Position numbers: made by a program. Below, in pieces: positions 42,001 to 45,000 of a stretch of 56,388 nt of DNA (its first letter is position 1; the number at the start of each line of letters is the position of its first letter). This DNA is from a virus (lineage: Duplodnaviria > Heunggongvirae > Uroviricota > Caudoviricetes), in the IMG/VR virus record IMGVR_UViG_2909282993_000001, positions 1 through 56,388 of that record. One strand, 5' to 3'.

Positions 42001-45000
42001 TAGAGACACAGCTTGCGCACGTCGATAAAAACTCAATTCGTGGCACATACAACCATGCGCAATATCTGGATGGGCGGCGGGAAATGCTTCAGTGGTACGC
42101 TGATTATATGGATTCGCTCGAGCATGGCGGAAATGTGGTGCATGGTGAGTTCGGAAAATGCGGGTGACTGGTTGAGTATACAGTAGTAGACTTTGAGCGA
42201 CGAAAGAAAAGGCTGTGTCTAGGGTCGCTCCCGAAAATCCGTACACCTCGACGGACTGGTACAGCCACTACAGTAGAGGACGCTGAGGTGTGCGTATGAT
42301 TGATATTCATGCCGAATTAAACGAATACAAAAAAGATTTTATTTCTTTACGTGAATTTCTTGAGGTCGTGCTTAAGGTCGCTGGTGATGATTATGATGTT
42401 TCAGATGTCATAACTTGGATACTCAGGAGAATAAGCGGAGAACATATCCGCCTGTACACAGTAAATGAATTTAAGCTGTTGGAATCTTTTTGTAACCCGT
42501 ATCGGGATGAATTTGATAATGATGTTCTTTATAGAAATCTGAATGCGGTTCGGAAACGTGGTTGTTTACCTGGTGAGAGGGATGAAAATGGTTTTCTGGT
42601 GTCCGGTTATTGGGAAGATCCCGAATTTGAGAACATTGGATTTATAAGGGGTGAAATTTTCGCAATTTTTCCCGATGTCCTTGACGCGTTAACGAAGCTG
42701 GAAGGCGCTAACTCTTCTGAAAATGACGAGGCACAAGGACGCGATATTGAAAAGAAAGAGTTGCGTACAGAGGATGATTTATTATCCCAAATCGCAATGC
42801 TGGAAAAAGAAAACGCAGAGTTAAGGGCAAGGATAGAGCAGTTAGAGCAAGAGCGCCCGATACACTTATATAAATACTGGGATAAAGACCCATTAGCTAA
42901 GGCTATTGAGATTAGAAACAGAGAGTGGGCCAATTACGATCCAGAAAATGATTTTGCCACCAGGGGAAATCAAGAAGCGATAACCAGGGAGCTTAAGCAG
43001 TGGGGGGCAAGTAATGCACTTGCAACGCTCATAGAGAGGACTGCCTGCCCTATTAACCGAGACAACAGCCAAAAGAACGCAAAGCCGGATTAACGCACCA
43101 TACCGCATACCCTGAGGGTGATTTACTGTTACCCTGAGGGTATTTTTTTATCTTCCCCGTCAATTTTACCATCACCCTTAGGGTAGATTTCCTCCCGATT
43201 ACCATCACCCTTAGGGTAGATTTCCTTCCGGTAACCATTAGGCCTGAGGGTATGAAAATATTCGTTATTTCTGTGCCATGATTACCTCGTCAAATTGAGT
43301 AGACGTTATGAGGTAAATATATGTCAAATACGCTTATTCGTTTAACAGAAGTTCAGCGTAGAACTGGATATAGCAAGGCATGGATTTATCGCCTTATGGG
43401 GCAAGGTAAATTTCCTGCATCAGTTAAAATTGGCTCGCGAGCTATTGCTTTCGTTGAGAGTGAAATTGACGAGTGGATTAATCAGCGTATTGCGGAATCA
43501 CGCGGAACAGCTACCTGATTAAATGGCTACGGGGCTATTGCCCCCAGCTATCCACCAGCAAATAAAAGTAACTTAATTCGATAGCAGGAGTTTTTATGAA
43601 ATTTCCAAAAATGCCCGTACAGGGGCGGGGCTTCGTTCGGCCTGAAAACCAGAATCTGCAAAATCTCGGCGAAATTATCCCGATTATTTCCGGCGTTATT
43701 GGCGGGAGTGAAACCAATATTGTTAGTGCCAGAGCGTTACATAAGGCGTTAGGTGTAGGGCGCGTTTTCCGTTCGTGGATCAAGGGGCGCATTGAAGAAT
43801 ACGGCTTCACGGAAGGCGTGGATTATGAGGTTGTTGAATATTTGAGCCGACCCGATCCGGTGAGCGCAAAATCTCGCCAGCAAACAGCTCTTGAGTACAT
43901 CATCACCGTGAACATGGCGAAAGAACTGGCGATGGTCGAACGTACCGAACAGGGCCGCGCCGTTCGCCAGTACTTTATCAAATGCGAGGAGGAGCTACAC
44001 AAGGTTGCGCCTGTTCGTTCCGCAGCGTTACGCCGGGAACTGAAAGCCCGTATCACAGTTGCCAGCTACTTTAAGCCAATGTGTGCCGCGCTGGAGGCGT
44101 ACCGGGCTGAACTGGGTAAAAACACACTCCAGCACCACTACACCACGGAAGCGAACATGCTGGCGCGTATCGTGCTGGGTGGCATGACTGCAAAACAGTG
44201 GGCACTGGCGAACGGCATTACAGGCGAACCACGCGACCACATGAGCACGTTGCAGCTTGAGCACCTTTCTTACCTTGAGCAGAGCAATATCACGCTGATT
44301 GAGTTAGGCCAGGACTACCACCAGCGGAAGGCTGAATTAATTCGTCTTTCGCAGCGTTGGTTAGCCCGTCGCATGGAGGAAAACAGCCATGTGTAACGCT
44401 CTGACCGTTACAAAAAGAGAAAGCGCCCCGTTGCCGGAGCGCCTTTGTGAACGAATAGCCTACTGCGCCATATTGCTTACTGTCTACGAGGCAGATTATA
44501 GCGTTGTGGTCGCACAGAGTGAAGGCGCTGATCACCGTTACTACAGCACGCCAGAAATGCAGAATATTTTGCTGCAAAATGTCGTTGGTCACACTGTCCG
44601 GAAAGCAAAAAATTTTGCTGGTGGCGCGACTGATGCGATTTTGTCAGGTCGCCAGGTGCTGATCAATCTGATGTCTGATTTCGTTCGGGATAAAACAAAG
44701 GCGACCGCAGAGGGCCGCCAGTGGGAAAGCTACATACTTGAACGCATCGCCAACAATGCCAGATTTGCGGCTGGTGGGCAATGTGTCAGCTTTGCACCAA
44801 TGACTCTATGTTTAACTGAGGGTCATTATGGTGAATATGCTGGCTTGCTGGTGGGCTATTCCTGCTCTTTAACATTGCCATGCCGCGATGTTTTACAGGT
44901 ATGCGACCCCATTTTTGTGCGCCTGTACTCTTTAAGGAATTTCTCAAGGATAAACGCACAGGGCGCGAATCTGTTTGACTCATGCTCGTACGCTATCTTT

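Follow-up and report, generated by a model that had tools for sequence, protein, structure and literature searches.

The stretch of DNA analysed here (the window, 56,388 nucleotides, positions 1 to 56,388 of the IMG/VR virus record IMGVR_UViG_2909282993_000001, assigned to Caudoviricetes) carries a 14.6-kb island integrated at the tRNA gene thrW, in which an unnamed gene, here called X, and an array of short palindromes separate the integrase gene (int) from alpA. By its layout the element resembles phage-inducible chromosomal islands (PICIs) and P4-like satellites, and comparison with related loci leads us to the view that X and the array probably form one regulatory module of this island, in which X would gate alpA. 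The co-occurrence and co-variation of the array with part of X, the helical phasing of the palindromes, their fixed geometry next to alpA and the domain architecture of X are evident in the loci compared, whereas DNA binding by X, the sign of its regulation and its ligand are inferred.

The palindrome array upstream of alpA

Four perfect 11-mer palindromes of the form ACCCTNAGGGT follow X, at 43109, 43131, 43174 and 43207, with a degenerate fifth copy, GGCCTGAGGGT, at 43241. The features of the region are as follows.

42296–43093, + strand: gene X, 265 aa (WP_000565285-type, annotated as hypothetical), from the listing of open reading frames (ORFs) and annotation
42296–42718: X N-terminal alpha/beta domain, residues 1–141, from AlphaFold2 (AF2) and alignment
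42770–42853: X leucine zipper, residues 159–186, from AF2 and heptads
42890–43066: X conserved four-helix C-terminal domain, residues 199–257, from AF2 and alignment
43109–43119, no strand: palindrome 1, ACCCTGAGGGT
43131–43141, no strand: palindrome 2, ACCCTGAGGGT, 22 bp from site 1
43166–43231, + strand: tandem 33-bp unit, two copies, with palindromes 3 (43174–43184) and 4 (43207–43217), both ACCCTTAGGGT
43234–43251, no strand: promoter-proximal composite with degenerate site ACCATTAGGCCTGAGGGT
43252–43282, + strand: putative alpA promoter, with -35-like ATGAAA (43252–43257), a 19-bp spacer and extended -10 TGcCATGAT (43274–43282)
43283–43316, + strand: inverted repeat TTACCTCGT-N-A(C/T)GAGGTAA, covering the alpA Shine-Dalgarno sequence
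43321–43518, + strand: alpA, 65-aa product of the AlpA/Vis family (PF05930; Pfam Phage_AlpA, 2.4e-19)

The first-pass annotation of this DNA had described five 9-bp palindromes including a tandem 28-bp direct repeat; the array before alpA is real, but it consists of four perfect 11-mers and one degenerate copy, and the two repeat units (43166–43198 and 43199–43231) are 33 bp long and 94% identical, with 28 bp exact. The four perfect sites are the only matches to ACCCTNAGGGT in the window at no more than one mismatch, where 0.85 would be expected by chance, and all fall within 109 bp. The number of 33-bp units differs between E. coli strains carrying the same X and alpA, from one in HUSEC2011 (L174) through two in the window and three in MB06173 (L173) to four in ISHS7 (L172), so that the totals run from 4 to 7 palindromes, and each expansion step is exactly 33 bp, or three helical turns. 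The proximal geometry is constant across these strains, and the centre of the proximal composite lies 75 bp upstream of the alpA ATG in the window and in L002, L003, L016 and L021. This composite abuts a conserved TGnCATGAT element, which we read as the extended -10 of the putative promoter.

A phased array of TTACCCTNAGGGTAA palindromes just before alpA accompanies the conserved tail of X wherever the two could be compared. The loci examined were P0027, P0034, P0036, P0033, P0035, P0023, P0022 and P0099 together with 12 divergent metagenome loci, and the pooled set comprised 15 non-redundant loci encoding the X C-terminal domain, with sites counted at no more than one mismatch to CCCTNAGGG. 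The gap that follows the X stop codon holds 61 sites (38 of them perfect) in 3,140 bp, or 19.4 per kb, against 29 (one perfect) in the remaining 132 kb of these loci, or 0.22 per kb, an enrichment of about 89-fold. Every fetched locus with an X-type C-terminus has two to six copies of CCCTNAGGG right after the stop codon, among them those of Yersinia (L016), Citrobacter (L021), the distant L143 and, with the variant ACCGTGAGGGT, Salmonella (L008). The consensus is a 15-bp palindrome, TTACCCT-N-AGGGTAA (TTACCCTGAGGGTAA), in which the central base is free. Centre-to-centre spacings cluster at 21–23 bp (n=13), 31–34 bp (n=14) and 42–44 bp (n=10), corresponding to two, three and four turns, and the flanks between sites cannot be aligned across distant loci, so only the core is conserved. 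Conserved core, diverging flanks, phasing and a fixed distance to alpA are all consistent with the earlier suggestion of multimeric binding sites for an island regulator.

Which part of X goes with the motif is indicated by shuffling of domains between loci. P0036 and the L011 protein have homologous N-terminal domains (E = 1e-13), but these are combined with an X-type C-terminus and ACCGTGAGGGT sites in P0036 and with another C-terminus and other repeats in L011. As the C-terminus and the repeats change together here, the motif follows the C-terminal module of X and not the N-terminal one. The proteins of L011 and L012 share a second C-terminal type (E = 7e-9), and their repeats, TTCC/CCAA-type in L011 and CCCAA(A/T)TTGGG in L012, share a CCAA core. 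N-terminal similarity between X and the L012 protein is not significant (E = 1.1), and the solid case of shuffling is therefore P0036/L011.

Pairs of ACCCTNAGGGT 8–38 bp apart were also very common, among the matches listed (L023–L102), in metagenome-assembled genomes of Chloroflexota, Anaerolineae, Roizmanbacteria and some Bacteroidota, in places forming long, regular arrays (L043, L075); these are presumably unrelated repeat families.

The inverted repeat over the alpA Shine-Dalgarno sequence is a separate element. It occupies the same position in L002, L016, L011, L012, L163, L167 and L169, and it tracks the type of AlpA, also where the type of X differs. Its pairs are mostly invariant, with a single compensatory pair, so that covariation is weak, and the TTACCTCGT repeat could be either a leader hairpin enclosing the Shine-Dalgarno sequence or a candidate autoregulatory site for AlpA.

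Protein X and the candidate array binders

X starts 128 bp downstream of the integrase gene and had been noted as an AT-rich ORF of 267 aa beside a P4-type integrase. The ORF stands, with 41.5% G+C (39% in its N-terminal part and 48.9% in the whole window), but the longer reading, from a GTG (42290–43093), is less apt than a start at the ATG at 42296, which we prefer because the RefSeq annotation agrees with it and the N-termini of homologues start MIDIHAEL. Apart from coiled-coil noise, X belongs to no family in Pfam, PHROGs, PADLOC or NCBIfam; it matches none of the PADLOC-DB defence models at E up to 0.1, and gave no match in a tblastn search of 50,697 phage records. It shows no homology to Stl- or CI-type helix-turn-helix (HTH) repressors, no HTH was found in it, and it lacks the AlpA-family domain (PF05930). 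The homology and structure search that had been recommended for this ORF thus returned no family of known function, its only matches in the Protein Data Bank (PDB), by sequence, being to the zippers of GCN4, Max and C/EBP (E = 0.006–0.9). The idea that X is independent defence cargo is not borne out, as there is no PADLOC match and its C-terminal domain co-occurs with the array.

Among 5.8 billion proteins we found 43 relatives of X, mostly enterobacterial and all unnamed. When these are aligned, the N-terminal half varies, a heptad-repeat segment follows, and the C-terminal domain, about 70 aa long, is conserved, with the hallmark W...A-x-A-I-E-x-V-A-C-P-I-x-R, the domain ending in A-x-A-I-E-x-V-A-C-P-I-x-R. 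A hidden Markov model of this domain retrieved just 111 representatives, of 64–515 aa, from 1.84 billion representative proteins, and in them it is always C-terminal, joined to unrelated N-termini with essentially no Pfam domains. AF2 models residues 1–141 as a domain with a confidence score (pLDDT) of about 86–91, residues 159–186 as a long helix, and the C-terminal part, modelled alone, as four helices with pLDDT 91. In the zipper, LSQIAMLEKENAELRARIEQLE, residues 161–184 show a heptad pattern of Leu/Ile with an Asn in the core, and the PDB zipper matches are weak; the domain adjoining it has no basic region and a net charge of 0. X possibly defines a family of sequence-specific DNA-binding domain not previously described.

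The family also occurs in pieces. In L016 (3159–3962, Yersinia) and L018 (2802–3977) two neighbouring ORFs share its parts, one (108 or 228 aa) encoding the N-terminal portion and the other (153 or 158 aa) the zipper and C-terminal domain. The C-terminal part stands alone, at 64–118 aa, in P0044, P0045, P0086, P0093 and P0097. An apparent fusion of the X domain to a LacI-type ligand-binding domain, P0083, looks chimeric or frameshifted and was not used.

The proteins encoded around the array can be compared with its distribution, and the cross-locus comparison covered Int, AlpA and the gene after alpA. L014, an EcCIMP1-type island without the array, has an integrase 97% identical to that of the window, whereas the integrase of the array-bearing L018 is only 36% identical. 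AlpA is 71–75% identical, with an identical SKAWIYRL helix, in L011, L012, L013 and L014, all of which are without ACCCTNAGGGT, have a different integrase-proximal gene or none, and carry other repeats instead. The motif is kept in L008, where AlpA is about 26% identical, in L018, which has the L008-type AlpA, and in L143, where the next gene encodes 89 aa without an AlpA match in Pfam. The gene after alpA in array-bearing loci encodes AntA, Bro-N or pRha, or is absent. Int and AlpA are therefore excluded as determinants of the specificity of the array. The first-pass annotation had put forward AlpA and the small ribbon-helix-helix (RHH) protein of the island as binders of the repeats, and this now seems unlikely for both, for AlpA because its HTH is nearly identical in islands without the motif and the motif persists beside an unrelated AlpA type. 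The palindromes were also considered as arm-type sites of the integrase and rejected, since they lie 2.3 kb from the core and a 97%-identical Int serves an island that has none. The only product that co-occurs with the repeats is the conserved C-terminal domain of X, which is why gene and repeats look like one unit, and by this pattern X itself would most likely bind the array and gate the alpA promoter.

Proposed gating of the alpA promoter and its alternatives

In the related islands AlpA is a master activator of the excisionase family, which activates its own gene and drives excision and replication (PMC6092414, PMC11773190). We propose that X dimerises through its GCN4-like leucine zipper with core Asn, so setting two four-helix C-terminal domains on each TTACCCT-N-AGGGTAA; the 5-1-5 form of the palindrome fits such a zipper-tethered dimer. 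Four to seven sites placed two, three or four turns apart on one face of the DNA would load cooperatively, and loading would end at the weak composite site against the -35 region of an extended-(-10) promoter. Occupancy by X would then gate alpA, and with it the positive-feedback switch that starts excision and replication. As the sensor we propose the N-terminal domain, which is hypervariable and shuffled between proteins and would most plausibly respond to a helper-phage protein, by analogy with the repressor Stl; the coupling to a helper phage is suggested by the literature on related islands (PMC6092414, PMC11773190). We slightly favour X as a brake, a Stl-like repressor or roadblock released on sensing, because the sites are many and phased with strong distal ones feeding a weak proximal one, because an autoactivating switch needs a brake, and because transcription of a co-oriented upstream gene could read through into alpA.

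Several observations weigh against this proposal. The argument for binding by X is comparative, and the linkage of a gene to the DNA immediately downstream could inflate co-occurrence. The C-terminal domain has no recognisable DNA-binding fold and no net charge in an acidic protein, and its most conserved residues (E, V-A-C-P and R) do not make a textbook recognition helix. The variable TRGNQ segment, considered as the specificity determinant, failed as a prediction, as P0023 has TKPKS in its place and keeps canonical sites. In two distant subgroups the same hallmark goes with altered palindromes, TTACTATCATAGTAA in L005 and AGGGTGATAG-N10-CTATCACCCT in L019. A scan of 42100–43650 for consensus sigma-70 promoters found nothing, and the alpA promoter is consequently putative, read from the sequence and its conservation. 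Islands that lack X, such as EcCIMP1, are silent and inducible by a helper (PMC11773190), so X is no universal requirement. Finally, every site is upstream of the putative -10 and +1, an arrangement equally apt for an activator.

The same binding with the opposite sign, in which X is activated by the helper and, like lambda CI at PRM or Mu Mor/C, recruits RNA polymerase from the proximal site, around position -44 of a promoter whose -35 is poor, is the strongest of the alternatives, though we consider it rather unlikely. It agrees with the position of the sites, none of which overlaps the -10 or +1 and all of which precede the conserved extended -10, with the null promoter scan, as if the promoter depended on an activator, and with the silence of X-less islands in the absence of a repressor (PMC11773190). 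However an activator would rarely need four to seven phased sites reaching to about 200 bp upstream, or a distal expansion that differs between strains; the weakness of the promoter is already explained by autoactivation through AlpA (PMC6092414), and the -44 position is an estimate. That another factor binds the array, be it AlpA, the AntA/Bro-type protein, the RHH protein YlcI/YnfO, Int or a host protein, with X as linked cargo, is improbable. In its favour, AlpA is autoregulatory in related islands (PMC6092414, PMC11773190), AntA and Bro-N are DNA-binding domains, the C-terminal domain of X is neither basic nor of a known DNA-binding fold, and the int-alpA slot holds variable genes; yet Int, AlpA and the gene after alpA fail the test of co-occurrence in both directions, X has no PADLOC match, and a motif confined to the gap, with a single perfect site in the 132 kb around it, is hard to reconcile with a host factor.

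Two further explanations take the repeats out of transcriptional control. The array could be a DNA-handling site (pac- or cos-like, a partition site or an origin), with X as an adaptor to helper machinery such as terminase, and phased repeats with a zipper adaptor do recall TerS/pac and centromere systems; the L019 and L020 homologue directly follows terS-terL genes, and a variable N-terminal domain could match variable helper proteins. We regard this as very improbable, as the array is invariably next to alpA, its last site at a constant distance from both promoter and start codon, and lies far from the primase module, and those Gram-negative PICIs that have been characterised rely on cos sites or on Rpp elsewhere (PMC6092414). 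Least credible of all, to the point of near dismissal, is that the repeats act as RNA, forming hairpins or terminators in the 3' untranslated region of the X transcript, or are non-functional products of slippage. A promoter/terminator scan does mark sites 1 and 2 as terminator-like, with TTTTTTT after site 2, and the number of 33-bp units does rise and fall from strain to strain. But a 5-1-5 palindrome is too short for a stable hairpin, its central base varies freely, neighbouring sites are not complementary, and phasing at about 10.9 bp with conservation of the core alone points to a DNA-binding protein; a role as intrinsic terminators was rejected on the 5-bp stem and on the T-run, which is not conserved.

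The island, its int-alpA slot and related systems

The remaining features of the island are listed below.

40763–40786, + strand: duplicate of the thrW 3' end, left attachment junction of the island, exact 24-nt match
40953–42167, + strand: P4-type tyrosine integrase (Pfam Arm-DNA-bind_3, 3.6e-29; Phage_int_M, 1.3e-34; Phage_integrase, 4.2e-26)
42212–42279, + strand: Rfam RF02996 'int-alpA' RNA motif, 45.5 bits against a gathering threshold of 35.8, full length (model positions 1–71)
43596–44396: AntA-type gene
55346–55358, + strand: probable right attachment core, TTCCTATTATCGC, which contains TCCTATTATC

The window contains one tRNA gene, tRNA-Thr(CGT) or thrW, complete at 1369–1444 (ARAGORN), and the 24 nt of its 3' end occur exactly only at 1421–1444 and 40763–40786. 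The TCCTATTATC core, reported for the thrW island EcCIMP1 (PMC11773190), lies at 40771 and 55348, giving an element of 14.6 kb (about 40787–55358). The duplicated thrW 3' end and the repeat of TCCTATTATC at 55348 therefore indicate two tandem elements at thrW, and X and the array are in the second. Its integrase gene is 167 bp from the duplicated thrW 3' end, an attachment site of the kind used by PICI and P4-like satellites. The gene order, taken from the annotation of a 100%-identical locus (L001) and from Pfam, is integrase, X, alpA, AntA-type, a small minus-strand YlcI/YnfO-type gene, then Icd-like, DUF4222, primase, ProQ/FinO and PerC, a layout known from Gram-negative PICIs (PMC6092414, PMC10111431, PMC11773190). 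As in such satellites alpA is co-oriented with int and downstream of it, and the primase module follows, with DUF5906 and Pox_D5 primase-helicase domains at 47746–48786 (the L001 counterpart is annotated 'DNA primase family protein'). The length is within the 10–20 kb range of satellites, and several ORFs of 200–380 aa, which may or may not encode capsid-remodelling or packaging proteins, have no Pfam match. By its layout the element appears to be a PICI/P4-like satellite island; for its relatives, induction, replication and packaging have been shown to depend on a helper phage (PMC6092414, PMC11773190). An assignment as a PIME-type mobilisable element (bioRxiv 10.64898/2026.01.12.698999) was rejected, as neither the annotation nor the scanned ORFs contain tra/trb genes. 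The X/array region was found in 170 of 5,426 complete E. coli genomes, chromosomal every time.

The primase of the window is split into overlapping ORFs of 256 aa (46982–47752) and 346 aa (47746–48786), 1,805 nt in total, where L001 has a single gene of 1,806 nt. This suggests a 1-nt frameshift, which might have left this copy of the island unable to replicate, unless it reflects an error in the sequence. A 435-aa ORF on the plus strand (44389–45696) is probably spurious, L001 instead being annotated there with small minus-strand genes, for a 66-aa hypothetical protein and the 59-aa YlcI/YnfO-type protein (45114–45293), and with the Icd-like gene. The first element, about 39 kb from the intact thrW to the duplicate of its 3' end (1445–40762), has its own tyrosine recombinase on the minus strand (1459–2622) and large co-oriented ORFs through 18–37 kb, and is probably a prophage.

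That the position next to the integrase holds variable genes, as had been anticipated, is upheld by the comparison, in which the int-alpA slot contains members of the X family, of the L011/L012 family, DUF6387 proteins, or nothing. The other slot proteins (L011 2252–2842, L012 2117–2857, L013 1909–2790 and L015 2029–2880) are unannotated and two-domain, and include a family with a common C-terminal GK-TA-K-IAG-AIAL motif as well as DUF6387 proteins. Each of these genes is followed by repeats of its own before alpA, in L013 a palindrome with 14-bp arms. The corresponding spacer of EcCIMP1 (L010, about 5045–5025, strain MP1) has no X-type gene but does have everted half-sites AGGGTAgctcTACCCT, which may be chance or a remnant.

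The RF02996 motif ends 17 nt before the X ATG. In 15 other loci it is likewise placed 15–25 nt upstream of an X-family start codon, and in one case it precedes a DUF6387 gene. The loci include L002 (3919–3986), L003 (3917–3984), L008 (4918–4985), L013 (1827–1894), L016 (3075–3143), L018 (2717–2780), L019 (3219–3284), L143 (292–360), L159, L162, L164, L165, L170 and L171; in L019 and L143 the motif is present without an integrase upstream in the fetched sequence, and none was detected in islands with an empty int-alpA slot. Rfam files it as an sRNA-type gene, and the copy in the window, between int and alpA, is a true member; its placement suggests a 5' leader belonging to the gene next to the integrase, and not an independent small RNA. 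A wider reading, which we offer as tentative and doubtful, is that the X family, the L011/L012-type proteins and possibly DUF6387 proteins are domain-shuffled sensor-regulators of the int-alpA slot and the missing helper-phage sensors of Gram-negative satellites, with the int-alpA RNA as their leader and the copy number of the operator (one to four units) tuning the threshold of induction.

The closest functional parallel is Stl (Rpr), the master repressor of SaPIs and Gram-positive PICIs, which like X is the product of an island gene beside int, is modular in build and has operators before the genes that start the cycle. Its own hypervariable module captures helper-phage proteins, the role proposed here for the N-terminus of X. 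The two are unrelated in sequence and fold, and the order is reversed in X, where the N-terminus is variable and the C-terminus conserved. Stl is divergent from its target operon, whereas X is co-oriented with alpA and its sites are downstream of it, and unlike that of Stl the proposed target of X is the promoter of an activator, repression by X being a proposal. Among Gram-negative islands EcCICFT073 and EcCIMP1 follow the same plan (int on the tRNA side, alpA, antirepressor-like, Icd-like, DUF4222, primase, PerC), and EcCIMP1 uses the same thrW site with the TCCTATTATC core, but EcCIMP1 and its relative L014 have neither an X-family gene between int and alpA nor a ACCCTNAGGGT array. A different small ORF in the int-alpA slot of EcCIMP1 was tested in one paper, with no result.

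The array itself recalls the sites of P2 Cox and phage 186 Apl, which are likewise short, whole turns apart and upstream of a switch promoter, with probably cooperative binding; however Cox and Apl are small HTH proteins on direct repeats, and are also excisionases, whereas the sites here are palindromes and the candidate binder is zipper-linked. GCN4, Max and C/EBP are dimers in which a zipper with core Asn adjoins the DNA-contacting part, and their compact palindromes around one central base, such as TGA-C-TCA, resemble the core of the array. In X the zipper is N-terminal of a folded four-helix part and not of a basic helix, as in basic leucine zipper and basic helix-loop-helix zipper proteins, and the similarity is one of coiled coil only.

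For the alpA genes of Gram-negative PICIs the route of helper-phage induction is described as unknown, with no repressor identified (PMC6092414, 2018; PMC11773190, 2025), and in the searchable literature we found no description of the X family, of the array, or of a Gram-negative PICI regulator in the int-alpA slot. If our proposal is right, X would supply the regulator that these islands are reported to lack (PMC6092414), and a sensor with its cognate array at the alpA promoter would make the question of helper-phage induction testable by mutation. It would also add a new family of DNA-binding domain with a 15-bp target, give a context to the orphan RF02996 int-alpA motif and explain the int-alpA slot as a hotspot of variable genes. 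Even if X does not bind them, the palindromes are a strongly conserved, phased cis-element at the promoter of the master switch.

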